DNA from: Catajapyx aquilonaris
Lineage: Eukaryota
Direction of reading: 5' to 3'
DNA length: 56,656 nucleotides
Assembly (NCBI GenBank): GCA_000934665.2
Contig: KZ538551.1
Location: forward strand, 186,001-242,656
Numbering within the stretch: the first letter of the stretch is position 1; every line of letters starts with the position of its first letter. Below, in pieces: positions 8,563-42,809 of this stretch. The notes beneath the pieces are model-generated. The model ran no database searches, was not told the origin of the DNA, and was given only the letters and a program-made list of their open reading frames with translations. A program made the position numbers and the translations under genes.

Positions 8563-10396
8563 GAAAAAAGAAAAGAAAGAAAATGGAGGTCCCCGATGTT
8601 TCTCAGCCCTCAAAAGATGTGTTGGAATTTTTTGTTTTAATATTAATCCCCCCCCTCGATTACTGTGTATAGTACTGTTCCCTTTCTTAGCTGACATGAA
8701 TACATGTTGTACTAATCATGGCTTCCTGTATTTCTTTGGTAAACCTTCAGAATTTTCAGACTTGTTTTCTGTTGTCCATTTCATCGTGGAAATTAATATA
8801 CTATATAGAGCGTCAGTGTTTAGTAACATTCGGTTTCATACCAGCGTGCGTACCACAACACTCACACACACTACGCTACACGACAACTGGTACTTGCAAG
8901 TTAGTGGTTTCCTGTTATTGCACAAGACGTTAAGAGTAGGACAACCGGCACGTGTTTGGATCATCTTGGGTCAACCCACAACATTCGCAAAGTGTAATGT
9001 GATGTAACTCAAAAGGATCTAGTTTACAATCACGAGAGTGTACCACATGTAAGAACACATGCGACAAATGGAGGACAGAGGATTCAATGCACCTGTCGTA
9101 AACTACCCCGCATGACAAGTGGAATAATATGAGACAAGCCAACCTCTCACACAGTACATTGAGAGGCAATTGGCACTCATTGCGGTGTGGTTGCTAGGGT
9201 GAACAATCCCGAATATTACCAGCCGAATTTTAACAGCATTTCCATTTCATTTTATTTTTTGGCCTTGCGTTTTTCCGCGAGCGAATGTCGTTGCGCAATA
9301 TTGTTGCGAAATCCTTGAGAAACGGCGGCGGTTTATCGTACGTTACGTGATGCACGCGCTTGACTCGTGCTGTATTGGAGATGAGGGTTTTTTTTTGTTT
9401 TTAAATACTCGTAGCACTTATTGCAAGGCGAAAGATCGCATCATGAAGCCAACGTTCGGTCTGTATTTCAACAATGCTGCTGACCCGCCCTGGCAAAAGA
9501 TCCTACCCTACGCCAATAACATTGTTGTTGTTATGGGAAAACGAGAAAGCAGCAGCAGGGCTTGTCTATATAGCTCGGGAGAAACTAAGCAATTCAAGAA
9601 CCCTGGATCGCCAGTCAAGCATTACCGTACACGACCCACTTTACGAAAAGCAGCGCACTTTCAACGTGCACCACACTTATTGCTGTATGTAGTACGACAC
9701 CACAACAATACGCTGCAAGCTTGATGTCGACGCATCTGAAATATTATTATTACGTAGTATTTGGTAGGCTACTTGTTGTCCCAGCTACTTTTGCTTTCTT
9801 GTAATGTATATGGATGGCACATAATGGCTGGAGACACTGAGCCCCATCATTCCAGACACACAAGTTGGCCCAATTTTAGCAAAAAAGTCGTATCTACACA
9901 GACACGGCAACGCCACAATAACGTCCGTTGGCCTTCTCCGTGCAACGAACGTTATTGTGGCTTTTGCAAGTCTCACGGAAAAAAGCCGTATCTGTGCAGA
10001 TGCGGCTGTTTTTCCTAATATATTGTAGATACGGCTTTTTTTCCTAAGAGAGACCCCCCCTTTGTTTATCACGTGATCCGCCTTATTTGTCAGGGTTGCC
10101 ATTCACTTTCACGCCGCGTATTGTTGACAAACACTGGGAAGATTTTCCGCTCGTGATGTGGGGTGTGGACAATGCCCAGCATCACGTAGGCTATACCCTC
10201 CTCCTCATGCAGGTAGAGAGTAGTATAGATATAGAGGAATGAAGGAAGCGAACAAGAGATGCGGAAGCGACTCTCCAGGTAAGGGCAAAGCTAACGAGGC
10301 GGCTAAAGTAACGGTGCTTTGACGTCACCTGTTGGCCCGAAGAACATTACAATGGTGGCGGGGGTGGTATAGTTTAGTCGCCAAGGGGGGGAAAAG

Positions 10397-10467
10397 GAAG
10401 AAGAAGAAGAAGAAGAAGAAGAAGAAGAAGAAGAAGAAGAAGAAGAAGAAGAAGAAGAAGAAGAAGA
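10397..10467. repeat. (GAA)n microsatellite
   Basis: Uninterrupted GAA run. Confidence 0.97.
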
Positions 10468-11574
10468 GACCTCGAAAGTATGTCCATGTGGTCAGTTGTG
10501 CCATGTCTGTACACAAGATAATGCAATTCCTGGACATTAATGGTGTCGTACTGGTGGCGCTACGAGTCGATTGCGGCAAAAGAGAGAATTGAAATATGCC
10601 CTCCTTCAATGCGCTCTTTTGCCGCCATCGGCTCTTGGCGTCACCAGCACATATATTAGACTTGGAGGGATGTACCACCCTGTGGTATGGATGGAAGGGC
10701 GTTTGTGTTGGAGGTGTCCCGGTTCACTTTTGACCTCGGGTGTGTTTCATGCAAGAGGAAGCACCAATAGTGAAGCTTCTCTTTTCCGCAGATTGCGCCA
10801 ACTTTTAATGTAAAAAAAAATAGGGGGTGTAATTTCCAGGTAGAAAAAAAATAAGGCAAAAGTGCGCTGGCCTTGTCAAGCCTGGAAGCTGTAGAGCCAT
10901 GGACCAAAGTTCGGAGGACATCTGATGCAATAATGCATTTGCACCAAGGATGAACGCTGTGTAGGCCTACTGTAATATTTGTGCACGATTTCAGTACATT
11001 ACAAAGAACGCGCGATATCAGCGAAAATGTCACACCCGGACGATAAGAGAGAGAAAAAAAAGATACTACTGATCAATCTGACGTCATTCTCGGTGCTGTA
11101 CTTAGCGTACATATATATAGGTTGAGGGTGGATTCTAACTCCAGCAAATTCTGGTGCTGCCAGTCGATTTCTATACTTAATAATGAATCGGCAGACAGTC
11201 TTGGAATAGAAAAGGTCTCATTACAGTCCAAGTGAAGCTGCTGGACGGAATGGAAAAAGTTTGAGGAGGAAGAGTCAGGAGGAGGGGAAAGGACATGATC
11301 AGCAAGCAGAGAAGTGGACTTGCGCAATTTGCATGGAGGACCTCGCAGAAGAGGAGCTCCCCTGTGCTATGAAGAAAGAAAAGAAAAAAAAGGAAAAGAG
11401 AACCTGCTGGATGTGGATATAGTGAACTGGCAAACGGCCTTGGAAGGTCTTTCGGCTGCTGAACATTCTCATGGTGCACATGCACAAAGAGGGCCCCGTC
11501 ATTAACCTCGAATTGTGCACACAGTACCACTTTCGAATCATCTTATTATCTCATATAGAATTATTGGCTAGGCG

Positions 11575-11740
11575 AAACCTGTCCACGGCGACTCATCACC
11601 AACGTGCATCTAGTACTACTTTCTCCCTGAGGGCGGCAGTAGTGTGCAGAGAGAGAGAGGATGCGCGCCATCTGCGAGTGGCATATCATACTACATCCAA
11701 AGTGGGGAGCGAGCCGGGCAGTGTTACTAAGTTTTGGCCT
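11575..11740. mobile_element. Dispersed repeat family C
   Basis: Core TTGGCAACACTGCCCGGCTCG..CTTGGACGTAGTA..ATGCCAC..CAGATGGCGC plus GACTCATCACCAACGTGCA. Copies at 14190-14250, 22098-22240, 26605-26680, 26945-27115 and 37050-37350. Confidence 0.75.
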
Positions 11741-14254
11741 GTGAGTCCAGACTTTAGTTTAGGGTCATCCTGTTTAAAAGGCAAAGTTCGTTCGTTCGTT
11801 TGGGTGTTCGTTCCTTCGTTCCTTCGTTTGTCCAGGTGGAGAGGACGAGAGAGGTGTACAGACAGAGTGAATAATCATGTCTTGTATATGCAACGTTGCT
11901 CATAAAAGTGCCCCCCCCCCCCCCAAAAAAAAAAAAACCTCTTACTGATGGTGTGCATAAAAATAATCTGGGGGTTATGTTATCTGGAAGCTGGTTGGTC
12001 CATGAGTGATCTGAAACTGACTACGTGCCCGATAAGGTAGTTGGGATGGCGTCAGACCCTCTGACAACATTATACAGGACTGAGAGGAAACCTTTTTGGT
12101 TGGCGCCCGTTCGGACAGAGGGCATGGAAGTTGAGGTTTTGAAGACTTCGTGGGAAGTTTTTCCCCCCTCTCAACCTCATATACAATACACACACACATA
12201 AAATATTTCCCCAGCCCGGGGTTTTACCACACAGCACGTATACAGGTTGCAACACTTCAAGGTGCATACCCTCCGACCCTGATGTTTGTCCTTGTTATTG
12301 CACTCTATGTATACTGTATGCGTCGTATGTAATGGGACGCAGTAATAAGAAAGCCAAAATGCATTTGGTTCATTGTTATTGTTGCCTGGCTGTCATTGCT
12401 TCAGTCAATGCCGAAAAGTCGCTAATTATTGCTTTTCCGCAGGTCTCTCAAGGACGGCGGCATTATTCGCCTGACAGACTCCTTTAATAATAGTTTATAT
12501 ACTCCGCCAGTGTTTCCTTTGATGCTGACCTACGCTGTATGTAAACAATTACACGGTAATACACAGTACAAATCGGACAACAACTGATAGAATTAATTGT
12601 TGACCACAGCAACTTCATCGGGCGTCTAGTTTGAGCAGTTGCACCCACGTGGATTCTGTGTGTGTTATGATGGGTTGTGTACATGAGCATCTTCTGGGCC
12701 CTCCTGACTCGCATGTATATATGCACCCCCCCCCCCTCCCCCCTGGTGAATCGATCAGAGGGAAAATCCATCTGGCAGTAAAGCGCAGAATCCGTACTCT
12801 GAACAAAAAAAAAAATGCTTTGGGAGGTCCCCCTCAAGCTCTCTCATCCCATGACTGAATCATGCAGTTTTTAGCTTTCAGCTCCAACACCTTTTTGAAC
12901 ACAAACACTGAATCTACTACGTGATTATCGTCAGATTAGATAATACTTGATGATGTAATTGATAAGATGCGTACACTTTTTTTTTAAAGAAAAAAGAAAA
13001 AAAGTCTGGCGCCCCTGGAATAATCCACGTGCTTGGCATCTACAGGGAGTGTCGCAAAATGATGTAATTGCCTTCAAAGCTTGCAGTTAACAGGTTCAAT
13101 GTACGCCGCATGACCCGTTAAAACAAATACACATTAGAGGCCGGATTCACTATCAAGTTTTGATGCAGCAGAGTTTAACTAACCTCTACATAGCCGACTA
13201 AGTAATTTATCATTGTTCCAGAGACAATTTGTCAATTAGGAGCAATTTATCTTATCAATTTACATACCTTATACGTATCGTATGATGAAATAGTATACGT
13301 TAATTATTTCGAAGCGATCAATAAATAATCATGGGCATCGTAGATAATTTACATGATGTACTGTACATATCGCTGAGTCAAATTCCAACATGACATTATG
13401 CGGGAAAAGGGGCTGCTCTATTAATACATAGCCCATGACATAGCCACACATAAGCGGATGCGATCGTACCAAGTACGATGTGGCTATAGCAGACGTCATC
13501 TTTTAGGAACTGTGAGTCGTCTCACTCCCTGGATAAAACCAGACGCGATACCGACGAAAAAAGGTACAGTCATACTTCAACCGCAAACACTTTTAGTGTA
13601 CCAACATTTTTGTAGTAAAGGCGCCCAAAGAGCTGCCAAACATTATCTGGAGATGCATGTTTCTTTCTTTTCTTTCTCATCATGCTGAGACTGGGGGATT
13701 TACTGTACACCCCTGCCCTTGGCAGACAATAGATTCGACCGGTTGCATCATGCGAAATGAGTCAGCAAGACACACTCACTGTACGGCACTTTGCAGCACC
13801 GTATACCCACACAGATTGACACTGTGGCTTATACGAGAATGGGTCCCATTCAATCAAGAAGGGACCAAATATTTGCAAAGAGCACAACATTTAAACACCT
13901 AAGGTCACACCCTATATATCTCAAAATGCTGATGATTGATCATGTCATATTGAAATATTAGGTTCATTACACTATTTTTTGCCCCGGCCGCCATCAGTTC
14001 AATATTGCGAAAATTGGGGGTGCTTCCAGCCTTATGATCAGCGTCAATTTGTGCGATAGCACGTGTTATGTGCCAATATATCATATTATGCGACTTCTGA
14101 ACTACAATCCTGCCGAATTTATTAGCGGAAGGTTCATTGTGCAGATGCAGGTCACTGTAACGCACACTGCTGCAACTAGAAGTGAACCTAAAATTTGGCA
14201 ACACTGCCCGGCCAGCTCTGCACTTGGACGTAGTACGATATGCCATCCACTATA

Positions 14255-15483: not shown

Positions 15484-17739
15484 AAAATATATTGAGGTGT
15501 GGTTAACACTTGGTTAGTGAACACAATTTAATGTATAATGTGTGCACACATTTTCGAGGCAGATGCGTGCCTTTAGGCAAATCAGAAATTGTCGTTGTTG
15601 TTGTTGTCTAACTTCCTATAACTCGATGCAAGGTGTAAGGGAGAAAAGGGGTTAGTTTGGTTTGTTCGGTTGAGGACAAAGAAAAGCAGGTGGGCCAAAC
15701 ATCAATTTTCAAGGCCCGGCTTTTTTTGGGCAGGTGCACAGCCTACAAAGGGCAGCTGTTGGTCAGAAGGAGGAAACTCTTAGGGGAATAAAAAAAATTC
15801 AAATCTGCTGAGTTCGGACTTCCTTGTAAGATTCACTCCAATCACATTTGATATAGTTGAGGAATAATCAAATCATCCTTTTGATACATGTCGCTTATCC
15901 AAAGGGTGACAACCGATAAATTTTTCAAGGTTTTTTTTTTACGATTGATGCATTGCCTTCTAAATGTCATCAAGTTAGTGACTACTACGCTGCAACTGGG
16001 TTATCAGTGTAAATAGAAGGATTGGAATGTCAGAATTTTCTAGTACTTATAGCCGTTTGTTTCCTTGTCCGGCAATCATCGCTTATATGCTAATGAAGTT
16101 TCCTCGTATCGGACACACCTACTTTTTTTCATTACGCAACACTCATAATATCTGGCCTGCAGCACTTTAAATGAAATGCAACGTTCAATTGACATTGGAA
16201 CGTCGAGAAATCTAAATTTTACGCTGTTTCCAAAAAAAATTGTTTTGTCTGTAATCCATGCAAATTAAGGAAAATATCATATTATTTATTATGATTATCA
16301 TGCAGAACATCATATTTGTGTTCATACAACCGGACGTACATTTCGTTCGTTCACAGCATAGTAAATGTATTAATAATTAATTTGTTATTAATAATCATAA
16401 TAATAAGGCTGCCCCAACGACAAAGTGAATAATATTCTTCCTCGTATAGGAGCCACAATAAAAATTATTATTAAACCATAACTTGGAACTGAATTTTACG
16501 TATAAAGCTTACAAGTTTATTATCAATATATTCACGGGTGATGAGACATTATCAACAGACATAATTCGCAAATTAAAGCTAAATTTATGACCTAACAGAG
16601 GGTTGCATCATTTAATACGGTGGATCTAGTACCCTTATATTTATTGTTGACAAAAGTTAAGAAGTAACCGATAAAATCTGTATATATGATAGTGTCGGAT
16701 AATCGCGAATATCCTTTCTCCTTAATTACCCATGCTAAACATGCCTCGAAATTAAATACAGTTTAAGAGCTGAGAACAATATTCACGTATGGTTTACACG
16801 TGAATCGATCGTGAATTTCCAATCTTCACTCGACCCTCTGTTAAGAGGAGGAGGGAGGGGGAGGGAGGGGCAGAGAGGGGGTGGAAATAGGGGTGGGGGT
16901 TGGGGGGGGGGACCACCATTGATTTTAGAGACTAGAAGCCTCTAGTATAAGTATTGCGCCAAGAACAGTACCGTAAGTTAAACTAAAGTGCGCCAATTTG
17001 CCACCGATTGTATCTAACATTTTATCGCCAACAATATATAGGAAATTAGGAGATGGCCCGGTGCCATAAATTGGTTTGCTCTCGCAAATAATTGTATTAA
17101 TTTGTGCTGGGTTCACACACGTCGTTGTCGTTGTCTTTTCACATTTGAGAGAAAAAAAGGTCATTGAATGGACTCGAGTTATTCAATCGTTCACACGCAT
17201 TTTGTCGATCATACAGCTAAGAAGAAATCACCACGGAATCGCAAAATCAACCAGGCATTACGTTTTTTAAGGTAGGTCATGAAGGTTATGGCCCGATAAT
17301 AATGCCTCCTTTAGCTTGTGAGGGGGCCTTTTTTGGACGTCACAATGTATAGTCGTGGGAAGTCCCGTACTGTGCGCATATACAGATGGAGTGGGCGGAT
17401 TAACCATGACGTCAATGCAACCTTCGGAAGGCCCCGAAGTAGTCGTATATACAGAAGAGAGAAGTGACGTTGCCGTCACGCAAAGACCATGTGATCACAT
17501 CCGCTCCAAGCTAGAGTTTTCTGACCTTATGATTTTCCACGAGCTTTTTGACCTTCTATATGCTCCACTGGCACCAGGGAAGGGACTCCAGAGGGCGAAA
17601 TATGTAAAAAAGAAGATAACAGCCAAACCGTGCGATGGCTTTAAATATTCAAATCTGATTTCCTAAAAGGAGCAACCCAGCCATTATTGAATTTCCTCGC
17701 GGGGAAATTACGACAGGGTCAAAATTACTCTCGAGTTAA

Positions 17740-19761: not shown

Positions 19762-21111
19762 ACTGCACAATTTTTATAGCATGTCCTGCGTACGACCTTT
19801 GCGGCATATGTTGGCCGTAAAAAAAAAAAAAATCAAGAGCAACAAGTGCGACTGATCGACGTGTACACGGCCTCTAGTTTTGAAATAGTGTTCAGCATGC
19901 GGCCTTGAGAGTTGCTGCCAGGGGCTCGGGCATAGATTAGTTATCTATTCCCTTGAGTGCCGTCCTGCGGTTGTGGTACCACTCGTCACCATTTTCCATC
20001 AAAATTGTGTACACGCATGCACTATTCCCCTCGGTACACTTCATTGCAAACCCTCCACACAATTAATAAAGCCGATAACCCCATGTCAATCAGCGGTTGG
20101 CTCGTGTTGGCTCCAATAATAATATTTTAAAACTAACAGTTAATATAACCCTCGCAGGCTAATTATTCATCGATGCTTGAGCAAGGCTAATAAGTCTGTG
20201 TGCGAGCTTAGCGATTTCGAGAGGCACAGTATGCAAAAGGTATATATATAGTGAGAGGGGGGGTGATCCCCATGCAGAAAAGCCAATCAGCGGAGAGGTA
20301 ATTTCGCTGCTCTATCCAGTGGAGGCTTGGCAATCTGATTTTCATGTAATGTAGGAAAGGGGACCCCCAGAATGGATGGGGGAAGGGGGAATTCGCCCGG
20401 AATGGAAATTCAGAGAGTTGTGGGGGGAGATTTTCCACTCGGGAAAATTTTTGGGGGACAATCCAGCCGGAATCCAGCTTTTTCCAGAGAACCAAAAACA
20501 TGCTCTCAAAACTGTATAGTGATCAGGAAAATTTTATACGCCAATTTGGGATCAGCGAATATTTGCTAGTTGTCAAAGTGTGAACCGGAAGCTTAGTTGT
20601 AATGTACAAGCCGGAAATCTGTACGTGTTTGGACAGGAAAAAGGTTGAGATTCCAGGCCGACGTCCGGCAGATCAAGCTTGGTTATATTATACGAGAGGC
20701 GTTTATTTCCTCCTGCGAAGCTCACCAAAAGCTCAGGTAGCCTGTGCAAGCCCAGCCAATCAGGACAGCCCCTCTTGTGCTTCCATAGCCAGGTGAAGGG
20801 GGGGACCCTAATCCAGACTTGCCAGGTTTATCTTTTCCCACCTGGCGTGGGATCCCAGTTTCACAAACCAGAATTTTTATGGTACACTCTGTACGAATGA
20901 CATCATATGCAAAACAAATTCCTTAAAACAACCCATTGATCTGCAGATGATGTGTGTACAGACACTGCAAATAAAGATTGTGTGTGATGTGTATATATAC
21001 ACACACGATGAACCGGATTGTTCTTGAATAAAACATGGGCATGATTTACAGGGGCATTGAATTCACGTCCGCACACATTCCAAAAAATGCAAAATTTAGC
21101 GTAGTATCACT

Positions 21112-21210
21112 GGGTGGAATTTTCGTCCCACTGCTATATAGTTACTGCTAACTTAGAAGTACAAGTTAATGGCACTGCTAAGCTATAGCAGTGGGACGAA
21201 AATTCCACCC
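21112..21210. mobile_element. MITE family A (~100-115 bp fold-back)
   Basis: TIR GGGTGGAATTTTCGTCCCACTGCTA ... TAGCAGTGGGACGAAAATTCCACCC. Other copies at 25181-25297, 26221-26308 (partial), 34274-34387 and 47713-47822. Confidence 0.85.
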
Positions 21211-22240
21211 ATTGTTACTGGATTCGCAGAGGATGCTAGAAAAAATTATTGCGAATCCATCAGACACCTTCTAGTTGAAACGTACTGTTCACATCCATGA
21301 CAAGACGAGGTGACACGTGTTGACCGCAAATCCGGAGCAATTTCCCCGGAAAGTCCGGACAATCCCACCTGTTGCACTAGGTCCAGCCTCTTTGCATCTG
21401 ACCAGTGTCCAAAGTGATTTTGTGTATACATCTCGACAAAAAATGGCTGCTTTCACTTCCAGATATATCAAAACTCGGTGATTTAAAATACATACGCACA
21501 TACTGAATGTGCTAATAAATTGCTGTGTTTATTTTGCATCAATTCCGACACGAGGACGAATCGATGACCTCACCTTATAGATTTTTTGGTCTGCTGCTGT
21601 GTGTGTACATGTGACCGTGAAACACAGAGGGCGTGGGCGAGAAAGTGGGTGCATTATCCCTGAGGATCTTCACCCGCGCTCAGTGAACGTGTACGTCCTT
21701 CCCACCCCCTCCAAACCCTCCCCACCCCCTCCTCCAACCCACCTGCTACACCCCCCACCAACCCACGTAAAGTCTAGTGTACCTAGCGTAAAATGTAAGC
21801 CAAGCATGCGGGACCGACAGATAAAATGAAGGGAAAGGGGGGCCCCAGGTAAAAAGGTGCAACTTGGCAACGTCGCACCAGCCACCTGGACTGCCCAGGG
21901 GACAATGGCCCCCTTGGAATATAAAAAAAAAGGAGAGAAAAAACGTTTCTTCCCTATCCTCACCCTTACTCTCATGGTAGATTTTTACCTGGAGGACGCT
22001 CCACTATAACCGGATGCTAAGCAGAGGGTGATATTCAGATGAAACGCTAATGGTACGAAGTGGCAGCAACGGATCATCTATTTAATTGCGTAGTGCCAAA
22101 ATTTGGCAACACTGCCCAGCTCGGTTGGACGTAGTAGTGTATGCCACAACCAGATGGCGCGCATCCTCCCTCTCTGCACGCTACAGCCACCAAGCGGTAA
22201 AATATGATAACTAAATGCACTTAGGTGATGAGTCAACGCG

Positions 22241-25180: not shown

Positions 25181-25297
25181 GGTCGAATTTTCGTCACCAT
25201 TCGTCACACTGCTAGCTACAGCTAACTAGCAGTACCAGTAGCAACTCTAGTGCTGCTAAGTTTAGCAGTAACTAGCAGTGAGACGAAAATTCGACCC
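25181..25297. mobile_element. MITE family A copy
   Basis: GGTCGAATTTTCGTCA ... TGAGACGAAAATTCGACC with the shared internal TGCTAAGTT.AGCAGTAAC. Confidence 0.8.
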
Positions 25298-27120: not shown

Positions 27121-30088
27121 TAGTATACGTGATGTACACAAAAATAAATCCGGCGTGTTGTGAACATTACGGAGGGAGACCGTATACTGTGTATGTGTGT
27201 ACGTGTTTTGTTGACCGGGCTCTTGTAATTGGTGTAAAACGAGAGCGGAATGAAGTACCGTGGGAACTTTTACGTGCACTGACGTCATGAATTGCGGTCT
27301 TTTTCTGCAAGGGGGAGCTCTGGCTGAGTTGTAGAAGAGAGCTAGAGAGAGAGAAGTCGGGATAACTTTCAGTCCAAGGACCCGAAGGACGACGGGGGGG
27401 CACTCTCAGCAACACGTTTCTGCTCACAGAACCGGATTCTCTCTCAACTATTTTTTTATTTATATGTGTATAGGGGCATGCACACGAGCACTTGTGGCAG
27501 ACGTTTGTACGTGGAGTATTTTTATCACTAGCGTAACTGTGTTGGCCATATTCAGCCGGGGGGAAAAATTAGAGTAAATCCAGCAGCAATATTCCTCCAG
27601 TTGTATATGACATGGTTGGAGCTTACAGGTCATCATCTTCTGTTGCGTGTAACCTGACACATCCGGTAATCTAGTGTACGTGTCGACACCTGTGCGGGTA
27701 CAAACCGTTACCAACTTTCAGAAGATTTCATGTAAAAAATGGGACGAATATACACCGAAATCTTGCCACTAACAAATATTTTTCTCACGCGGGTCGCTAT
27801 ATACTTTTTTTAAATGGCATAATCGTCACACCAGTTCAAGATAATCCTACTAAGGAACCATCAAGTGGGGGTACGTCTAGCCAAGAAGAAAATAGAATAT
27901 TCCGTTATTCGAGACAAAGGAAAACCCTCCCTCGAAGGTCAGTCACGAGGTGCCCCGATCCAGCGCGGACCAGTTTATTCTTTCGAAGGGAAAAATTCTT
28001 TTTGGAAGTCTTTTGAACCTCCTGATTCATTTGGGGAGGGTTGCAGCAGCACTTTCATCAAACACAATGGTCTGTTTTTTTTTATTTCAAATAATCTTAT
28101 TCCAAGTGCTTGTCTCTGTGGTGATGTCACACTTGCCCTTAGCAATATTTTATCAGTGGAGATTGCGTCCACTCCAAAGCATTCCAAGGATTGTGTGATG
28201 GGAAGATGAAGACCTTCCATTGTTGGCACGCGCTGGGATCAAAGAACCTAATAGGGCGCGATAAGCCGGGAAGATTTCTTGTTTACCAACAGTGCTGGAC
28301 AATTTAGTGGTGACCGCCACGAGCAATTGGCGGCAAAAGAGCGAATTGACATTACCGGATGACCACCTTCATTTCATCCTAAATGAAGGTGGTCATCCAG
28401 AGGCAACTTTCTATTCGCTCTTCTGCCGCCATAGGCTCGTGGCGCCCCAAGTACGACGCCATTCGTTACACTGTGTAATAATGTTAGATTTAGGCATATT
28501 ATGTGGAGGAACATGCTAGAGAGCACTACTCCTTTCCCCCCNCCCCCCGAAACCTTATGACGCTTCGGACCTAATTATAGGCGTCTATTTTGTGCGTCGG
28601 TCTAATTATAAACCCAACTTTTGGGAGGCTGCGGCTGTGGTGACTTTTTGGTTTTGGAAGAACTGTCTGAATAAGCTCCATGTGGACTTACATCATCTAA
28701 TCTAGAGCCTTATCAGCTTAAGTTATGTAACGCAATTTTTTTTCCGCCTCACACTGACCAAACGTGTATGGTTAACAGGCAGTGTGTTGGACCAACATGT
28801 GTCGTTTTAGAGCGACATATGTCCGTTACCTGTCCATAAATCAGCACGATTTTTACGATGTCCTGACCAGTGTTGGCTACCATATGGCACAATATCAGTA
28901 TGACTCATTCTGACGTCCAAGGAAAAGTCAGAGCCTCGGACACGTAAGTCGCAAATAATTTTTGCACATATGACGCGTGCAGTGTTGTTCAACCCAGCAA
29001 CCGGAGTGTAAGTACAGCAAGTGTACTACCCGACTGACATAGTTCACGGTCTTGGGCTTCACAGACAAATTCAGTTACGCGAATCCTTTTAACTGGAAAG
29101 GTAGATGACCCCTTCTGACTTTTGCATCGGGCTGGATTTTTCTATTATTCAGCTTCACAACCCTACGAGCCACACTGCAACCATCCAGGGTGACGTCAAC
29201 ATGTGACGTTTCCACACCGGTGTTGGCACACACTGCATTCCAAGCGCCCCTTTGAAGCCGCCTTGTGTTGTGTGTGTGTGTGTGTACATAAAACATACAC
29301 ACGAACAATACGCAGGTCGTGAGCATGGTGCACTGACTGCACTAACCTGATGCCCCACAGTACAGTAAAAGTACGCATCACGGTCATGAAACACTCATCA
29401 TGAAACAAAAGCATGAATGTTAGACGAATGTTATAGTCACAGAAAAATAGCCTCGTGTAAAGACACTGTACAGGCGAAAGTGCATTATTTTCAACAATGC
29501 ACCTAATTGGAACAAATGTATAAAAGTAAACCAGCAGTTTGTCACGAGTATGACCGGACCAATATTTATATCTGCATTGACCACATTTTTTGAACATTTA
29601 TTTTTCTGCGGAAAATTTACGGGGACTGTTCAGATCGCTTCATATTTCAATACCCTCTCATCGTATAACTTATTTTATTGGCACGCAACGGCTTAGCAGT
29701 AGTTATAAATTATTTCGAGCACTGCTCAAGTCGGCACAAATCCGATTGTTCGCCCGGCCATCCAACTCCCAATGAAATTATCTTTTAAATTCATTTTACA
29801 TTTACCTATTATAGCTCTGAGAGAGGTATAGGATAAGCATCATGGAAAAGCACTCTGATTCAACCTTGAATGAGTGACTTCCTGTCACCTCCAAGGCATC
29901 TAGGGGCGATAGTAGAGCCAAAGGAGGAAACGGCGTCAGACACACACATGCAGGTAAAGGCGGCTTCAGGCGAGCTCAGCAAAGGCGGAAGTGGTGAAGG
30001 ACAACCAGAGCTGCCCCGAGGTTGCTGCTGGCTAGCTTTGTGCTTATCAGCAATGGGTGCTCATTGCCTTTAAAAAAAATAGCAGCCA

Positions 30089-30296: not shown

Positions 30297-33200
30297 AATG
30301 GCTATACATATCGATGCGGGGGATTCCCCAAGAGGGATTCCACACCTGTTACGCCACTAGTTTCGACCGAGTGGCGGCGGGCCGACATTAAGCAAATATA
30401 ATTATGCCAGTTAGCACCCCCTGCAGACATCCGATCTGTCTTCAATCAAAATGGTGATACAAACGGGGGGGGGCTTTAGAGTTTAGATTCCCCAACGCCC
30501 CGATCCTGTTTTGATTATTCACAGTGCATCAGCACCCTACTACACCACAAGCTCATGTTATTCATTACTCAAGAACTGTACTCTCCAGCTGCTGGCAGCG
30601 CTCTTATCGGACTGGTTACGACGTCCCTTCCAAATCGCTGACAATGGCCCACCGCACGGGAGGGTTACTCAACCTCATCATCATAAATAATTATATCAGC
30701 ACGATGATACACACCCTAGGGTTTTCCCCCTATGGAAATTGACCTGTTTGCAGACAAGGATTGCTCACTCTAGCAACCCCCTGGCAGGTTGTACAGTCGT
30801 GGAAATGGTAGCAGACCTGAAGCTTCAAATTAGCCTCCAAGTAGAGAGGCCCTCCGGATGCCCACCTTCATCAATCAAAGAGTAAGGTAGCAGACCTGAA
30901 TCTCACTAAGTGAAGGTGGTCATACGAGGCAAATTTGAGCTTCAGGTCTGCTACCTTACTCATTTCCGCGCAGCTTCTAATGGACTGGGGCAGTATCGCA
31001 CCACATCCGTTTGTATCGTGCCTGAAGAGCTGACGCATCTCCGGTATGCGAAAATAAACATCTTCTGATGGTAAAGGTCACGTGTAGCAGCCTGACAAAA
31101 AGGAGGGGTCCTTGGAGTCCACCTTTCGCCAAAAATCCGCCCCGTAGGACAACTTGTCCCACTCCTTCCTCACTCTCCAAGAATGCAGGGACCCAAATCG
31201 GTCCTCTGAATGGACCCAAACGACGAGCCAAGAGGAGTCTCACGGGGCCATTCAAATAAACCACTGGGCCTTCCACAACACAACCTCTTGCTCTTCCAAC
31301 CGCATGTAGTTTGCGAAAGAAGGAAAGAAGAAAAAAAAAGAATTCGCAACCAGGGCGTGACAGTGACTTCCTTGGTCGCAAGGACAATGATCCCAGTGCT
31401 AAAAGTGGGTCTGTTGTCGACTGTCGCAGGGTCACACTCAAATCGATGGACAAAATTACTCTAATGATTCAGAATCACCAAATAAAAGGCTTCCCAATTC
31501 AATATTGTGTGTGGTTCGTAATGAACTGCGTGACACTTCTTGGTTGTCAAGGAGAACCAATCATGGCTCCAGCTTCCTGTTGGCACATCCGTTCAACCGA
31601 GATTATCATCCCCTATTGGGAGGTTTGACAGCGGATGTTATATGCGTGGATTATTATTGAATCTACGAGCCCCCTTCCTGCTCTTATTATTATTATTTTT
31701 TTTAATGCCCTGGGCAGGGTGGTCCACTGCCCAAGATTGTTCACTCCACAGCATTTTAATTTTAAAAACGCACATGGTCATAAACCATTGCATGAAAGTC
31801 CACCGAGTTTTATTTACTGTCCCACGAAAATTCATGCACTTATTAGGGAACAATGGGGACCTAAAGCATAATTATTCTGCAAACCCATGTAAAAAAATCG
31901 TCATTATTTTAAAATTAATTTTGATGTGTTTTTGTTTGAAGAAATATGCATTAGTTTTCGAGCTATGGTCGATCAAAGATCATATTAATTATACGGTATC
32001 GTATTGCCCTCTGACGTCACTGCGGCTAAACAGATCGGTGCAGAGGCAGGAACACACCCGAGCTGATTTGTTCCTTTGCTTTGTTTGCGCTTTGTTGGGG
32101 CCCCTAACAACAGAACCAAACGACCGCCAGTAAAGCAGGTGCACCGGTCTGTTTATGAAACGTATACCGGTACGTCACTTACTGTTGTAACTATCATCAG
32201 GCAGGAATCGCAATGCGCCCGTTAGACCACACCCTCTTTTCCCCCCGCCAATTTGAATGACTTTTAAATCCACGATCATTTATCGAGCATTTTAGTGCTG
32301 AAAAGTGGTGGAATACGTGTTTACAGGTAGTTTCCCAAATCCCAGACCAACGCAAGGACTCCCTTGTAACTTGTGACATGGTCTTCCCGACCACCCTGTG
32401 CTTCCCCCCTCTTCATGTATTATACGGCCATTAATTAATTAGCCGTGATGATTGGGGTACCTCATTTACTATACCTGCGTGCTCATTTTCTCTTATCGGC
32501 ACCCTCATGCAATTAGGTTTCATTAGCTCCTCATTATATCTGCACGGAACAATTTTTTCGCAAATATTTCGCCAACTATTTTTCAGTAAGCGCAAGATTT
32601 TTTAAAGGAACATCAGCTGATTGCGTGGGCGTACGTTGAAGGTTGGTACGTGGGTGTTGCGTAGGTCGAGCAACGGAGATTATGTGGGAGAGACTCTTCA
32701 AGCGGGATTTCCTGTCACCAGTTTGCAGTGTTGCGTTCTCGCAAAATAAAATTCCCCATAACACCTCCATTTATTTTGCATCCCGCAGTTTTCACTTAGG
32801 CAATCAGGATCTCAAATTTAAAAATAACATATTTACATCCTCTACACTTGGTTAGCACACATTATGTTGACATTGGATGACTTGCAAAATCTGATCAGGA
32901 TGACCGTAATAATTTTCCCCTCCTGCTCTCTCTGAATTGAGCATAATAGAATCGAGAAGCTAATGTGTCATCCAGGAGCAAGATAAGAGGTGGGGGGGAC
33001 ACAAGGGGACAGGGGTACACAGAGGGGGGTTTAAAGTACAAAAGATGAGTCATTGAGCAAGGGGAAAGATGGGGTCGTACTGATGGGGGAGGACACACAA
33101 GAGAGAAAAAAAGACGCGGATTTTCCCCTCGTCATATGCGTCACTGAGGATTCAGAGGGCGAATATTGTAGAGAAAAAGGGGGGGGGGGGATGGATTAAC

Positions 33201-34090: not shown

Positions 34091-34273
34091 ACTGAACAGA
34101 AGTGACATCCATTACCTGTCAAATTTTAATTAAATATAATTACGTATGTATCGTATGAGTTTGACAATTTCATACCCGTTTTGTGACAAATTTTTTCATC
34201 GATCCCGCCACATCCTTGGAGCACAAAATGTCCCGCAAAAAAAAGGTCATGGGCCACCCCATCACGAGGCTAA

Positions 34274-34387
34274 GGGGTTGAATTTTCGTCTCACTGCTAG
34301 TTATACTTCTAACTTATAGAAGTACTGTTGCCAAAGCTGGTACTGCTAAGTTAGCAGTAACTAACAGTGGGACGAAAATTCCACCCC
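34274..34387. mobile_element. MITE family A copy
   Basis: GGGGTTGAATTTTCGTCTCACTGCTAG ... CAGTGGGACGAAAATTCCACCCC. Confidence 0.85.
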
Positions 34388-35713
34388 TGGCGTTTAGTGC
34401 CCATTTTGGTACCCATTATTTTCTGAAGTGCATCCCACTCTTGGCGCCCCTCAAAAATGCCCTGCTGGGCTCTGGAATAAACCCGACGACGGTCTCCCCG
34501 AGTAAATTTCTGGTGGGTGGGTGTGTGTGTACAAGTTTATCGATATCGATTGCGCGTGCGGCAGGAAATAGCGTGTAGGAGAAATAAAACTTGTCCATAC
34601 AGTGGGAGAGGAGAGGGGTTGGCGCGAAATGAGGTTTCGGCACTGAGAGGCTAGGAAGCTCCAATAGTGACGTAAATCCCCCGGACAATCTCTATAGAGG
34701 AGTAAACCGCGTGGGTGTTCACGCCTGGGTGTTTTGTGCGTGGGCGTACAGGCCCACCTACTCTTAATGTTTTTTTTTTTACAAAAAACTCCTATTTTAG
34801 GTGCGAAGATCGTGAGAATGAAGAGGCCGGATATTACCGACAAAAGGCCAGTTATAAGGCTAGTGACCCTCAGACTTATTGCACTACGTAGTAGACGATG
34901 ACGTACGAATCATAAATAGATTCGGATTCGATAAAAAGTACACAAAATATTGCACTGCTCGAACAAAGCAACAATATCATAATCTATTGAAAACATATAT
35001 CGCAAACAGCCATTAAATTTTTTTTTTAAAAACAAAACAGAACAAGAGAAATTTTATATTGAAACTGACCTCTCGAAAAATTGAAATTTGAAAGTATGAC
35101 ATACGTACAGGCGGTATAGATTTGTACTTTTAAAACATCGACTGCACGATAAAAATATCGCTCTCGTGTTCGATATGTCGGAATGCCGTCATGTTCTACA
35201 TATCGAAAATATCAATACCACGTTCGATATGCTGCAATGTTATGGTCCATATATCGATATCATGTTCGGTAAGTTGAAATATCGTGTTTTATGCATTGAA
35301 ATTCCTATGTCATGCTGCAATGTCATGTTTCTTATCTCGATATCCTGCAATGTCATGTTCCAGAAATCGACATAATGTTCGATAATATGTTGAAATATGC
35401 TCCATATCGATATCATGTTATATATTTCGAGAAATCATTTTTAAATATACAAAATATCGCTCTCATGTTCGATTAGCCGAAATATCATGTTCGAAATATC
35501 AATATCACGTTTGATATATACTGCAATGTCATGTTCAATATCTCAATGTAATGTTGGAAATGTTGAAATATATTTCATATGTCAATATATTCAATGTGTT
35601 GAAATATGCTCTACATCAACATGGATATCATGTTCGATATGGCCTAATGTCGCGTTTCACATACCTTATCGCTATCTAGTTAGATATGTTGAAGTATCCT
35701 CTATATCAATATC

Positions 35714-36025
35714 ATGTTCGACATATCGACAATAATTTTAACGATACGAAATATCGACCTGATGTTCGATATATCGACAATAATTTTACAGATACGAAAT
35801 ATCGACCTGATGTTCGATATATCGAAAATAATTTTAACGATACGAAATATCGACCTGCTGTTCGATATATCGAAAATAATTTTAACGATACGAAATATCG
35901 ACCTGCTGTTCGATATATCGAAAATAATTTTACAGATACGAAACATCGACCTGATGTTCGATATATCGAAAATAATTTTAACGATACGAAATATCGACCT
36001 GATATTCGATACATCGAAATATCGT
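35714..36025. repeat. 48-bp minisatellite, about 6 copies, preceded by a degenerate TCGATAT-rich tract (35130-35713)
   Basis: Unit GTTCGATATATCGAAAATAATTTTAACGATACGAAATATCGACCTGAT; explains the 16-aa periodic ORFs on both strands. Confidence 0.92.
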
Positions 36026-36139
36026 ACATAAGTGCCCGAGGAAGTGCCAGACGAAGAGGGTATAATACGATACAATGCCATCCAGTGGTGTACGTACCAT
36101 AGGAGGTCAGAATGACCTATGGTCCATCCCGTAGACTAC

Positions 36140-36410
36140 GAACCCCGCTACGTCATAAACCCTGGGCGTGCCCATGTTTTAAATATGAGTATGGCCCTGC
36201 CTATAAAGGTCATTGCACATCCTTGACGTCACGGTGCGGTGGGCGGGCGGGAAATGGCCCAGCTGTAAAAGCCCTGCTGCTGCAAGAGCGTGCTTTTGCC
36301 TGCGTCTCTCCCCATGAAAGGCAATCCCTCCCCAAACAGCAGTAGTACTCCAGCCATGCAAATGACGTGCTGCTTCCACGCATGACGCCTGCACATTACG
36401 TTACTTCCCG
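36140..36410. promoter_or_regulatory. Candidate SRF/CREB enhancer downstream of IER
   Basis: Perfect CArG CCTATAAAGG at 36200-36209, CRE at 36224-36231, half-CREs near 36149 and 36363, GC box GGGCGG near 36241. Confidence 0.55.
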
Positions 36411-37049: not shown

Positions 37050-37350
37050 TGGGCTTTGTCCACGCGGTGACTCATCACCAACGTGCATGTAGTACTACTG
37101 GCTCCCTGAGAGTGGCAGGAGTGTGGAGAGGTAGTAGACGCCACAGCTTTCACTTGTCCTCTAATTGTTGGACGGGGAAAGTATATCGCCCTGGTGGACT
37201 TTGCTTAGCGACTCATCACCAGTGTGCATGTAGTACTACTTTCACCCTGAGAGTGGCAGTAGTGTGCAGCCTGTGCGCCAACTGGTAGTGGCATATCGTA
37301 CTACGTCCCAAGTGGAGGGTGGGCCAGGCGGTGTTGCTAAAATTTGGCAA
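37050..37350. mobile_element. Family C copy with internal duplication
   Basis: GACTCATCACCA.GTGCATGTAGTACTACT..CCCTGAGAGTGGCAG occurs twice (about 37069 and 37210); matches 11590-11740. Confidence 0.75.
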
Positions 37351-39504
37351 CGAGTCCGCTACTATAGTACACTGTATAAAGAAAGGTACCTAGGGTGATG
37401 TGTCCCAACTCCAGCAACAATGCGTTGTGACATGGGAGGGAAAAGTCTTGATTATTTCGAGCAGGGCTGCCCGCTTTCTCCTCCTTGCGTTTCGAGGTGA
37501 TGAGAAGAGATTATTGGCCTCCATTGGCCTCCCTCTGAGCCCCCAGAAGGGAGAAAACTCTGTCTTGTCCCCTCCCCAACACCATCAGAAAGTGTCAGTC
37601 TGGCCTCCTAGAAACAAGAGGGAAAGTGTGGTGGGGCCCTCCAGAGAGAGTTTTCACCTGCAATTAGTGTGTAAAAGGTGGTCTCCTCATTATCCTTGCA
37701 CTTGGCCCTGCTTTTCACTCCCACACTGGGTGTGTGTGTGTGTGCACGATCCACATACCCAGCTAGGGTTGAAGAATAGATGAGGGGGGACCTATTTTTG
37801 GTGGGGGGAATAGTGGACAGGTGACGTCACCCCAAGGGCAAGGTCTATGCCCTATTTGGCTCCCCCTCACACGGGGAGGCTGCAGATTCCCACCATCTGG
37901 AGAGAGAGAGAGAGAGAGAGAGAAGCTGGGACTATTTTCTCTCCCCATCCCCTCCAGAGCTGGCTGGCACCCTCCAAGCAATGAATCACTGAGTGACTCA
38001 CAACACAGAAACACCCCCCAACTTTTATCGATCTACTAATAGTCATCCCCTTCCCACAGAAGCTCCATCATAATTCCATCAACAAATTGGACACTATTTG
38101 TTTCAAAAAACAAAATCAGCAACATATTTTTAACACATTTCTTTTTATTCATGATTCTCGTCTATCAGACCCCTGACTCTTAAAACAGAGCTCTTTACAT
38201 TCACGAGTAACACCTTCGCTGTACAATTGTGCTGAGATTACACACATTGGACACTTCATACATTATGTACATTTTTTTTTAAAGGTGTAGGTAAGTAATA
38301 CGGGTAAAGCCCGGTGTTGTACGGTCAATTTACTCGGGTCAAGACGAAGCATTTGGATGCTTATTGCGAAAATTTGGACATGTAAAATGTACAAATCACG
38401 TGTGGAAAAAGAAGGAAGCTGCAAAAAGGGGCGCTTTTGGGTCGCGCCATCTTTTCAAAGTTATGTCGCAGGGGAAGGGTGTTGACAACAGTTAATTGAC
38501 CGGGCTACAGGGCTTTAACTTAAAAAAAAAACCACTGATAATGACCCAATGAACACATGCTACAAAAATGTGGAAGAAAATAACTCTTGTTGAGCATTAC
38601 ACTTGTTCTCTGTTTAAGTTAAATCCTGATGTCTGCAGTACAATAGTTTATCACAACCTGCACGGCTTTTTTTTAAAACCCCCCCCAGAAACATAATGCA
38701 GATCTTGTATAGGAAAAAAAAATATTTAAAAAAACATGTTGGGCCAAAATCAAATAGGTTGCTGTTTCAGTGAAAAATACTTTTTGTGTTGGCAGGCAAG
38801 CGCCAAAATCCTCTAGGAACATTACTCATCCGATGGTGAAAACACTCTTCCTAACCCATGCAGCACTTGCCGCATTAAATAATCAGAACAAATCAAATGG
38901 TCCGCTGGAAGTCATACCAGGACACAAGCACACGAAATTTTGAGCCATGCACTCCAATCCTAACCAGCCGCAAATCCAAAAATCTTTCTATACATTACTT
39001 TTTTCCTCTCATCATGATCGCCAGTTACCTGGGATGGTTAAGCAACAGTGCACGAGATCACAAAAAAACTATATACCATTTCTTCTCTCTCTTTCGAATA
39101 AACAAATTAAAAATCAAACTCCACAGCCACTTTTTCAAAACAAGTACACGATTAATAACTTACTTCCCAAAAATAAAGGAAAAAAAAGGCATATCGTCCA
39201 GGCCACATGTTTTGCACCCTCTGTACATTTTGTACCACTGATCAACCAAAAAAAGAGGACATCCTGAGATTGTTTAAGGTGCTTATTTGTGGTACAGGGG
39301 GTTTTGTTTGCTGGACATGATCGGTTGGTCAATTTCTTTGTGCTGGGACGGTTGGGGGGATGTAGGTATGGGAGGGGGAAAAAACTTCCTATCCTGCACC
39401 TCTCTCTCACACACAATCCTCACGCACACATTATTTGGTACAATCCTCTTTTTTTAAAAAAAAGTTTAAACAAAACCTATTTACAGTCCAAGGGACCCTT
39501 GGGG

Positions 39505-40883
39505 TCACACCGTCATGGCAAGGTAGGGTCTCTGCACCACCCCCATGGCTGTACCGTCTTTTGCTTGAGACGAACACAAGTCTGGGGTCGACACCGACCT
39601 GGTCAGCTTCCCACCGCTCTGGTTCCCCAAGGAGCTACTTCCACTCTCGCAAACTAGCCCCCCGAAACTAAAGATGGACACCAGGCTGGTTATGTGGTCT
39701 ATCTCCATGGCAGAAGCACTGTTCTGGTCATCAGGCTCGGACATCCCGGAGCAGAGTTCGCTCAACTCATCCTGAAGCAGGTACGGCAACGGTATTGGAG
39801 AAGAAGGCTGGGTGGAATCCGGTGCCACCTGGTCGCCCCAGCACCGTCGCTGCCTCTTCGGAAGTATGGATGACACCGCCTCCTCCGTCTCCCAGTCTGG
39901 AACCATCGCACCTCGCCTACGCTTCAGGCACTTTTGGACAGACGGCGACGGTGGCGAGTTGCACTTTGAGTCGACCAGCACCTCGCGCGACTGCTCAGAT
40001 GTGTCGAGGTCCAAGTAAGTAACAGTGTTCTCCGCCAACGACCCACCGGACGGCGCGGAGTTCTCCTTGTCCGAATCAGACTCGTGCGAAGTGGGTAGGT
40101 CGACCACAGCCGCGGCCATCTGGTGGAACTCCTGGTCGCCATCGGTACTGCTACTGGGCACATCATGCGGCAGGCCATTGTACGCCGCATGGTGATCCTC
40201 CTCAACCGCCTCAGCCGATGGGCCCATCCCCATTGTTGAATAGTTAATCAGCTGCAAAAAAATGCACAACAATCAACGAAACATTCAACAACAATTGGCG
40301 CCCTAATTTAAAATAAAGTTGGCAACACTGTAAGATGCCAATAGTTTGGTGTAATTTTTTTTTAATTGCAAAAAAATGCACAACGTTCAACAACAGTTGG
40401 CACCATATTTTTTTTAAAAGTTGGCAACACTGCATATGCAAGGTGCCAACAGTGCCACAAGTTGCTAATGGTGGACAAATTGCTAAAAATTCGCAAAAAG
40501 CAGGTGGCACCCCCCGTTTGTCCATTGTTAAGGGTACGAACTTTGCAAAAAGAAATTCATTAAAAGTACCGCTAACGTGTGGGTGTGGCAACACCGCCAA
40601 CTCTCACCCCCCCCCCCACTAGTACATGGCAACACCGCAATTCTTGGTTTGAAGATTCAGCGCGCGCGTTTTTTTTTTTTTTTTTCGTTCTGAGAACGTT
40701 CCATATCTTTTGCAATGTGACGTGTCGTACCTGGTATGTTTCCTCCATGAAGACATATCTGGCCTTCTGCAGCACCGAGGCGACCAGCAGGTTCCGATGC
40801 AGGCTGAGCCCGCCCCGCTGGCTCCTGGAGAGCGCTATCTTGGACAGCGAGATGTTGATAAGTCTCTGCGCTTCCGTCGCCAT
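39505..40883 (-). CDS. Immediate early response (IER2/IER5/IER5L family) protein
   Basis: Exon 1 40883-40731 encodes MATEAQRLINISLSKIALSRSQRGGLSLHRNLLVASVLQKARYVFMEE (IER N-terminal domain). Donor CAG|GTACGA. Exon 2 40251-39505 has a basic NLS-like KRRR and the conserved C-terminal ITSLVSIF motif. AATAAA (-) at 38144-38149. Confidence 0.92.
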
Positions 40884-41069
40884 CACACCCACACACACCC
40901 AAGAAGACCCCACTGAATCCAACACCAGTACAAACACCGCGTTTCCCAAAAAAATGAGAAGATCCTTTGGAGGCCGAGGGGGGGGGACAATATTGGTGGG
41001 AGAGAGAGCGACACAGATCCTTCCCGTTCGAATTCCAGCTCCAAAATGACGGTTACTGGCCGAATCGGG

Positions 41070-41450
41070 GGGTTACTTATAGGCTCGGTCCCTATCTGAC
41101 GTCATACTCCACTTATCGACCAATCACGGACGCCGGCCTTCGAGTAGGGGAGGAGGTGGGGGGGNNNNNNNNNNNNNNNNNNNNNNNNNNNNNNNNNNNN
41201 NNNNNNNNNNNAAAAAAACGGCGGCAGGACACTGCTGCCATCTGTCGGCCGGAGATTGCGCGATGGATTCCGGCCGTTAGTGGCCACCCGGCATAAGGGC
41301 CAAAATGAAGCTTGGATGAACGGCCAGTTGGCCCCTATGGCCCGGTGGCACCAAGGGCGAAAGTCCCGTGACGTCACAGAGAGAGAGAGAGAGAGGGGCA
41401 GGGAGGGTGGGTAGAGGGAGAGCCTGCGTTCCGGATGACGTAACACATCC
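41070..41450 (-). promoter_or_regulatory. IER proximal promoter
   Basis: TATA-like CTATAAG (-) at 41076-41082, CRE TGACGTCA at 41097-41104 and 41369-41376, CCAAT near 41120, TGACGTAA near 41436, and a CTCF-like CCGACAGATGGCAGCAG (-) near 41232-41250. An N-gap at 41165-41211 interrupts it. Confidence 0.75.
41165..41211. other. Assembly gap (N run)
   Basis: Run of n between poly-G and poly-A tracts. Confidence 0.99.

Positions 41451-42737: not shown

Positions 42738-42809
<72 letters not shown>

Follow-up and report, generated by a model that had tools for sequence, protein, structure and literature searches.

What does a stretch of about 31 kb with no detectable genes do beside an IER5-like gene, and why does it hold so many perfect copies of the cAMP response element (CRE)? 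The question is raised by a 56,656-bp stretch of the Catajapyx aquilonaris genome (GCA_000934665.2, contig KZ538551.1, positions 186,001 to 242,656), hereafter the window, within which all coordinates are counted. Motif content and gene order suggest that the stretch, which lies between PTPA and the IER5-like gene, is plausibly a control region responsive to signals, and we treat it as a candidate for that role.

We observed 11 copies of the CRE palindrome TGACGTCA in the window, compared to 0.59 expected (100 dinucleotide-preserving shuffles; maximum 4; 0/100 reached 11). Ten of these (10320, 11079, 17407, 27280, 29191, 32012, 36224, 37822, 41097 and 41369) fell within the interval 10001-41700, where 0.42 were expected (0/300 shuffles reached 10). 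The remainder of the window held one site, at 52058, compared to 0.33 expected (300 shuffles). These and the later CRE expectations derive from shuffles or models of this window's own sequence, and the counts cover this one window. A first-pass annotation of the same DNA had listed all eleven positions, each of them exactly, and had put the expectation for a random 8-mer at about 0.5 in about 31 kb; the excess is confirmed.

The excess did not depend on repeated DNA within the window. None of the 11 CREs overlapped a self-BLAST match (word size 9, E ≤ 0.01; matches within the window), in an interval that is 16.6% repeat. This bears out the first-pass view that the flanks differ and that no single repeat family accounts for the sites. 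With all sequence marked by self-BLAST or Tandem Repeats Finder masked, 15,521 8-mers of the interval were compared, and TGACGTCA showed the strongest excess of them all (10 observed, 0.29 expected under an order-2 model; P about 1e-12); its extension TGACGTCAC ranked first among 9-mers. It also ranked first among the 256 palindromic 8-mers (P = 2.7e-12); the next palindrome (P = 2.6e-6) derived from a tandem array.

The CRE excess is restricted to the perfect palindrome. Variants with one mismatch, taken over twelve classes, numbered 17 compared to 8.7-13.1 expected, and perfect sites numbered 10 compared to 0.33-0.74. The ratio of perfect to one-mismatch sites was thus 10 to 17, where the background model gives roughly 1 to 25. 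Because neutral decay of repeats would give the opposite ratio, the proportion of perfect to damaged sites argues for maintenance or for recent independent origin. Matches to the ATF consensus GTGACGTMR numbered nine compared to 0.57 expected.

The gene at the right end of the interval is a genuine IER-family member, as the first-pass annotation had supposed. It lies on the minus strand and has two exons and 299 codons. The coding part of exon 1 (40731-40883; 51 codons, MATEAQRL...ETYQ) begins with an ATG at 40883 and ends before a gt donor at 40730; an intron with gt...ag ends (40730-40252) separates it from the coding part of exon 2 (39505-40251; 248 codons including the TGA stop). The protein matched the IER domain PF05760 (68.4 bits vs a cut-off of 22.6, E = 1.7e-18). 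Its N-terminus shared 50/52 residues (96%) with protein P0003, which carries PF05760, and beyond the N-terminus the exon 2 part was 55% identical to P0003 across its whole length. We found 288 relatives at E ≤ 0.001. Among the best 120 of these 288, the named ones were insect "immediate early response gene 5-like" proteins or uncharacterised proteins with PF05760, and the named insect IER5-like proteins showed 38-48% identity. In a snail, an Ier5l homologue is reported to be induced and to act as a neuronal immediate-early gene (PMC6584072).

The first-pass annotation had placed the whole CRE array 3' of this gene. Eight of the ten sites do lie there; given the gene's minus-strand orientation, the sites at 41097 and 41369 are upstream of it, in its promoter. 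The proximal promoter CRE (41097-41104, TGACGTCA) lies 15 nt upstream of a TATA-like box, TATAAG (41076-41081, minus strand), and 221 nt upstream of the ATG. The first T of TATAAG is 34 nt upstream of the A in an initiator-like TCATTT (41044-41049, minus strand), which places a predicted start, by spacing only, near 41047; the ATG follows TCATTT by 164 nt on the gene strand. A CCAAT box (ATTGG on the gene strand; 41120-41124, plus strand) sits just upstream of the proximal CRE. The distal promoter CRE (41369-41376, GTGACGTCAC) adjoins a (CT)n tract (41379-41395) and precedes the ATG by 493 nt. A one-mismatch variant (TGACGTAA/TTACGTCA) followed by CCGGAA occupies 41436-41443; the second perfect CRE and the variant stand about 270-340 bp upstream in the promoter. 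Between the two perfect CREs is an assembly gap, a run of 47 N (41165-41211). Read along the gene strand, the order is TTACGTCA, CCGGAA, (CT)n, GTGACGTCAC, the 47 N, inverted CCAAT, TGACGTCA, a 15-nt spacer, TATAAG, TCATTT and the ATG. Two full consensus CREs (41097-41104 and 41369-41376) therefore fall within about 500 bp of the predicted start. We found no CArG box in this promoter. Among the genes flanking the interval, only IER has promoter CREs. This layout makes it very probable that the IER5-like gene has an immediate-early promoter of the CREB/ATF type, with a CRE/TATA arrangement. A tandem array with a 27-bp unit (7.7 copies, TAGTAACTGGCAGTAATAATATTCCCA) lies at 41846-42053, about 450 bp upstream of the distal promoter CRE and between IER and O-fut1.

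The noncoding interval itself begins at the last Pfam-matching open reading frame (ORF) of PTPA (8222-8401, plus strand; profile positions 235-275 of 293). From this last PTPA exon to the IER stop (8401-39505) we found nothing coding, with no Pfam family in ORFs of at least 50 aa. Of the ORFs read from stop to stop, 210 measure 50-83 aa and lie within 9589-39634; none of them gave a Pfam match at E ≤ 0.001. ORFs of at least 84 aa gave only low-complexity or sub-threshold Pfam matches at E ≤ 0.01. This second scan covered 150 of 153 ORFs; the three left out were 342-599 (plus strand), 35693-36028 (plus) and 35715-36116 (minus), the latter two being alternative frames of a tandem array. Translations of the largest ORFs in the interval looked unlike proteins. 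Upon scoring of codon usage, trained on the flanking genes, 4/196 interval ORFs of at least 60 aa exceeded 10 bits, and the best of these was a (GAA)23 microsatellite. As far as ORF-by-ORF Pfam scans reach, the first-pass remark that no coding gene is evident holds.

The same interval contained no tRNAs and no Rfam family at gathering thresholds. At E ≤ 1 there were six sub-threshold Rfam matches, five to microRNA-type hairpins and one to a bacterial leader; at least four of the five hairpins lay within or overlapped repeated inverted-repeat elements. A hidden cluster of let-7 or other microRNAs was considered and rejected: the let-7 match scored 28.8 bits (cut-off 53.5), and the mature let-7 21-mer was absent even with 3 mismatches. 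The hairpin behind that match (30877-30964; E = 0.06) is near-perfect, with arms GAGTAAGGTAGCAGACCTGAA and TTCAGGTCTGCTACCTTACTC and no let-7 mature sequence, and a related arm occurs at 30807-30837. The label "gene desert" stands, and lineage-specific small genes or noncoding RNAs may still lie within it.

The eight distal CREs are spread from 1.7 to 29 kb past the IER stop, and neighbouring sites are 0.76 to 9.9 kb apart. The nearest (37822-37829, GTGACGTCAC) is about 1.7 kb 3' of the stop codon. The 308 bp around it (37672-37979) have a GC content of 0.55 and only three CpGs (37747, 37825 and 37872; observed/expected 0.13). The CpG at 37825 is the CRE's own; protection of this CpG would fit, as a single case. 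The CRE at 36224-36231 has a CArG/TATA-type CCTATAAAGG (36200-36209) 14 nt away and two GGGCGG motifs at +17 and +21. Further from the gene follow the CREs at 32012-32019, at 29191-29198 (with a TGACG half-site at 29204-29208) and at 27280-27287 (with a Su(H)-type CGTGGGAA at 27259-27266, upstream).

The densest module surrounds the CRE at 17407-17414 and spans 17327-17478. Its first part holds a CArG box CCTTTTTTGG (17327), a half-CRE (17338), CGTGGGAA/GGGAAGTCCC (17354-17366) and GGGCGG (17393); after the CRE come TATATA (17446) and two more half-CREs (17465 and 17474). Towards PTPA, the CRE at 11079-11086 is followed by TATATATA at +33, which gives a CRE/TATA arrangement on the plus strand (11079-11119), and the last CRE (10320-10327) lies 70 bp from the (GAA)23 microsatellite. 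The Su(H)/RBPJ-type CGTGGGAA stands 53 bp from CRE 17407 and 21 bp from CRE 27280, and its copy at 17354 overlaps the NF-kB-like GGGAAGTCCC.

These sites suggest the following mechanism. CREB/ATF-class basic leucine zipper dimers would occupy the palindromes, either constitutively or more strongly upon signalling. Kinase or calcium signalling would then recruit the coactivators CBP and CRTC, and the CRE/TATA pair in the promoter would drive rapid induction of IER. The distal sites may work on the IER promoter as enhancers that respond to signals, or as start sites of an enhancer-like kind, and so add gain or widen the range of stimuli. We assign the distal CREs to IER, as their predicted target, because the interval is the only large noncoding space adjoining the gene, because IER alone among the flanking genes has a CRE-bearing promoter, and because IER and O-fut1 are syntenic. 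The combination of a CREB/ATF-driven immediate-early promoter with candidate distal CRE elements is in our judgement an even bet. That the distal CREs are enhancers, taken by itself, falls somewhat short of that and is put forward as a candidate role.

Several observations weigh against this reading. Nine AP-1 heptamers TGA(G/C)TCA lie between 13374 and 41684 (13374, 13758, 22229, 26117, 28901, 33046, 37068, 37994 and 41678), and their enrichment in the interval was only nominal (9 vs 3.61; 3/300 shuffles). Two of the nine (22229 and 37068) lie inside a repeated element. Motifs for the usual CREB partners at activity-regulated enhancers of vertebrates were no more frequent than expected in the interval (SRF/CArG, 3 vs 3.39; ETS core, 4 vs 6.69), and MEF2-like matches, which come from AT-rich repeats, were raised equally outside it. 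The flanks of the CREs share no co-motif, and no 6- or 7-mer survived correction for multiple testing. GC and CpG content around the CREs were heterogeneous. Set against the remaining sequence of the window, the concentration of CREs in the interval was modest (at least 10/11 sites inside; binomial p = 0.016-0.025). The distal sites could also have another target (PTPA, a noncoding transcript or some gene beyond the window), and the CRE-bearing elements may be single-copy in the window and repeated elsewhere in the genome.

The first-pass annotation had described the interval as a CREB/ATF/AP-1 landscape resembling vertebrate immediate-early loci. The CREB/ATF part of this stands, in that the CRE excess is real, palindrome-specific and outside within-window repeats, and the IER gene is genuine and has a CRE/TATA promoter. 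The AP-1 part and the likeness to vertebrate loci hold up less well. Eight AP-1 coordinates were exact and the one at 26117 was missed, the AP-1 enrichment is weak, SRF/CArG is not enriched, and two of the ten CREs belong to the promoter.

We considered whether the distal CREs are instead promoters in their own right, that is, CRE/TATA starts of unannotated noncoding RNAs or very small genes, and not IER enhancers. A TATA-like hexamer lay 10-50 bp from 4/11 CREs compared to 11.4% of random positions (p = 0.029). These four are the CRE of the IER promoter and the distal sites 11079, 17407 and 36224; the remaining 7/11 had no TATA nearby. The module at 17327-17478 resembles a compact promoter, and directly downstream of the 11079 CRE/TATA pair is an ORF (11210-11419, P0243) with moderately coding-like codon usage (log-likelihood ratio 14.1 bits). 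This ORF had no Pfam match, however, and a search of 1.84 billion representatives brought up just one relative, of low complexity (E = 2.7e-6). The scarcity of coding-like ORFs in the interval, the best of them a microsatellite, and the purely sub-threshold Rfam matches speak against it as well. The two accounts also overlap, since enhancers often initiate transcription. We regard separate promoters as improbable, and the candidate enhancer role of the distal CREs as the better account.

The CREs might also be passengers of mobile or viral elements (solo long terminal repeats (LTRs), pieces of different transposon families or endogenous viral promoters) that are single-copy here and repeated elsewhere in the genome; the interval would in that case be a gap in which transposons pile up and not a regulatory landscape. 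A CRE followed by a TATA box is a common layout of LTRs and viral early promoters. The interval is richer in repeated DNA than its flanks (16.6% vs 3.8% and 11%), several families resembling miniature inverted-repeat transposable elements (MITEs) are present in it, and two AP-1 sites lie in a repeat. The CREs themselves all lie outside within-window repeats and share no significant flanking k-mers. No reverse transcriptase, integrase or transposase domain was found in the interval, the only transposase-like ORF (52634-53326) being outside it, and we saw no long LTR-type direct repeats. Decayed copies are also at odds with the proportion of perfect to one-mismatch sites, and two of the CREs belong to a working-looking gene promoter. 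An origin in mobile DNA is therefore, in our estimate, unlikely, and a little more so than separate promoters.

The third explanation, a genome-wide or noncoding-wide excess (for instance a motif widespread at promoters or boundaries, or a bias of composition or mutation towards this palindrome) that would give adjacency to IER no specific meaning, draws on the single window, the modest contrast within it, the position of the lone outside CRE at another promoter (52058-52065, just upstream of the first coding exon of ARPC5) and a somewhat raised count of palindromic 8-mers as a class (217 vs 136.9), yet we think it the least probable of the three, with a single CRE in the remainder of the window, which amounts to about 25 kb and at least 8 genes, none near the peroxiredoxin, PTPA, O-fut1, carnitine acyltransferase or zinc-finger genes, and a wide gap in P value between TGACGTCA and the next palindrome. 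Overall, the evidence within the window leans against all three rivals.

Other regulatory motifs were assessed in the same way. The EGR-type GCGTGGGCG was found 4 times in the interval compared to 0.15 expected (0/300 shuffles reached 4). It ranked third in an unbiased 9-mer scan and was borderline after correction (P = 3.3e-6, 21,342 tests). Its sites lie at 21631-21639 (plus strand), 24383-24391 (minus), 32623-32631 (plus, with CGTGGGTGTT nearby) and 34738-34746 (plus, within a small cluster of GTGGGTG-like repeats). CCAAT, NF-kB-like and three-unit HSF motifs gave no convincing enrichment in the interval, and a CArG box lay within 80 bp of only 2/11 CREs. Across the window, AP-1 was not enriched (11 vs 7.28; 13/100 shuffles reached 11). 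The two AP-1 sites just outside the interval, at 43720 and 43737, form a pair of heptamers 10 bp apart (43720-43743, TGACTCAGCC ... TGAGTCATGC) just 3' of the large O-fut1 exon, and the first of them has an extension like an antioxidant response element or Maf recognition element, TGACTCAGC.

Four further candidates were tried and rejected. Heat-shock control was considered because in vertebrates IER5 is linked to HSF1; here GAAnnTTC was raised (22 vs 10.66), but a palindromic MITE family accounts for many of the copies, and a perfect three-unit element was absent. For regulation by Notch, Su(H) sites were not enriched (4 vs 2.49), though two adjoin CREs. For a CpG-island context, there was no common pattern around the CREs (local GC 0.40-0.59, CpG observed/expected 0.13-1.20). 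The other 8-mer with a strong excess, TTGGCAAC (16 vs 1.9), came from dispersed short repeat families (the CAGTGTTGCCAA family) and was not associated with CREs.

The genes around the interval were placed by a Pfam scan of stop-to-stop ORFs. A peroxiredoxin gene lies on the minus strand at ~3.6-3.9 kb, and PTPA follows on the plus strand (6718-8401), convergent with the IER5-like gene. Directly upstream of IER, on the same strand, is the large exon of O-fut1 (O-fucosyltransferase 1, POFUT1; 43802-44629, minus strand). Because O-fut1 is only ~2.4 kb from the IER promoter, the ~31 kb between the IER 3' end and PTPA is the sole large noncoding space at the gene. Beyond it are a carnitine/choline acyltransferase gene (48.1-50.6 kb, plus strand) and the first coding exon of ARPC5 (ORF 51708-52004, minus strand). 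A 231-aa ORF between ARPC5 and a C2H2 zinc-finger ORF (52634-53326, minus strand) carries Tc5 transposase and CENP-B N-terminal DNA-binding domains, and is predicted to be either what remains of a pogo/Tigger-like transposase or a gene that has been domesticated.

O-fut1 and PTPA showed about 55-72% identity to proteins of branchiopods, decapods, insects and other arthropods, which places the source among the pancrustaceans. The IER5-like and O-fut1 genes are tandem minus-strand neighbours (39505-44629), and in five insects (Gryllus longicercus, Lamprigera yunnana, Hypothenemus hampei, Henosepilachna vigintioctopunctata and Exocentrus adspersus) their locus tags follow directly on one another. 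This adjacency suggests an old microsynteny, a constrained block. O-fut1 modifies Notch. Human IER5 is a direct Notch target (PMC7529455). A conserved PTPA-IER linkage was considered and not counted as support, with the two genes on one scaffold in Cryptotermes and unlinked in Gryllus and Diploptera; in Gonioctena, PTPA is 7 locus tags away from O-fut1. Both genes that flank the interval (PTPA, 6718-8401; IER, 39505-40883) concern PP2A. PTPA is a PP2A activator, and IER5 proteins are reported to regulate PP2A/B55. The most far-reaching version of our proposal is a dedicated CREB/ATF landscape in which ten perfect CREs, set far more densely than in the mammalian genes of the PMC5740062 table, would drive an IER5-like PP2A regulator within an ancient O-fut1/IER block of Pancrustacea; we hold this tentatively and think it rather unlikely as a whole.

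The repeats of the window include several families of their own interest. A short dispersed family with CAGTGTTGCCAA (TTGGCAACACTG), probably MITE ends, has copies at 14190-14246, 22090-22160, 26603-26684, 27027-27100, 11679-11738, 37289-37351, 40319 and 40421, and two copies of the family lie inside the IER intron. A second family shares TTGGCAACGTCGCA(A/G)ACGTC.GCCAT at 21864, 26462, 26820 and 30201. Its ACGTC half-CRE-like cores, which accompany a GCCAT element, raise the background counts of ACGT and TGACG, not those of perfect CREs. A palindromic MITE-like element of about 110 bp has at least five copies (21103-21219, 25169-25308, 26223-26309, 34272-34388 and 47711-47833), and it explains both the GAAnnTTC excess and a weak microRNA-like Rfam match at 21113-21209. 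A tandem array with a 48-bp unit (35152-36023, core 35714-36019; 6.4 copies, 93% matches) lies about 200 bp from CRE 36224 and is rich in TTCGATATATCGAA, CGATA and TATCGA, which we take to resemble sites for the DNA replication-related element (DRE)/BEAF type. In the interval as a whole, TATCGA occurred 38 times compared to 11.1 expected, and TATCGATA 3 times compared to 0.33.

To our knowledge, immediate-early control is known mainly from a few vertebrate loci, and only a handful of arthropod promoters, such as that of egr-B, have been dissected. The core promoter of egr-B (stripe), a neuronal immediate-early gene of arthropods, combines two conserved CREs and a serum response element (SRE) with CCAAT and the initiator YCATTC in insects and crustaceans; a GAGA-type motif and further stimulus-factor sites enriched distally are also reported (PMC6140108). 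The IER5-like promoter is a close parallel, with two CREs (both perfect), CCAAT, a TCATTT initiator and a (CT)n tract; unlike the egr-B promoter, it has TATAAG, and no SRE/CArG was found. The egr-B account concerns an upstream fragment of 1.6 kb, whereas the distal CREs here are 3' and spread across about 30 kb.

Work on mammalian neurons identifies activity-induced promoters as CRE/TATA promoters, and reports that a CRE close upstream of TATA predicts CRTC/CREB-dependent rapid induction in mammals (PMC5740062). Like the c-fos, Nr4a1, Nr4a2 and Dusp1 promoters in that study, the IER5-like promoter has a consensus CRE near and upstream of TATA. The mammalian genes described there carry mostly half-sites (c-fos has six, all half-sites; PMC5740062), compared to ten full palindromes here. 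Human IER5 is described as being under the control of "a series of flanking enhancers", and for one of these an AP-1 site is required (PMC7529455). That locus shares with ours the gene family, a single small gene and flanking enhancers, the last a candidate feature here. In the human enhancers characterised there, Notch acts via RBPJ sites (PMC7529455); here the CRE is the dominant motif and Su(H) sites show no enrichment. For crustaceans and hexapods, no paper holding TGACGTCA was found among the matches listed, which is weak evidence of absence. Open-access full text leaves IER-family regulation outside vertebrates essentially undescribed.

The c-fos enhancers e1-e5 and the Arc synaptic activity-responsive element (SARE) are activity-regulated distal enhancers of vertebrates that bind CREB several kb from their promoters. 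The candidate elements in C. aquilonaris resemble them as distal CRE elements several kb from an immediate-early promoter, whereas the c-fos and Arc elements pair CREB with SRF and MEF2, and here CArG boxes are neither enriched nor regularly close to CREs. SARE is mentioned in PMC5740062. CREs at immediate-early promoters and enhancers are thus already known, and this locus is a new and unusually dense arthropod example.

If CRE density proved ordinary genome-wide, the finding would shrink to one well-formed CRE/TATA promoter. If the sites are bound and needed, this compact, sequence-defined locus would let one ask what number of CREs a response to signals requires, and whether full palindromes at a distance can do without SRF and MEF2; its promoter might also serve as a reporter of activity in a non-model arthropod. 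A PP2A-regulating IER protein would, moreover, be tied to cAMP/calcium signalling outside vertebrates. Distal homotypic CRE enhancers, should the proposal be true, would represent an old and separable layer of immediate-early control without the vertebrate SRF and MEF2 partners.

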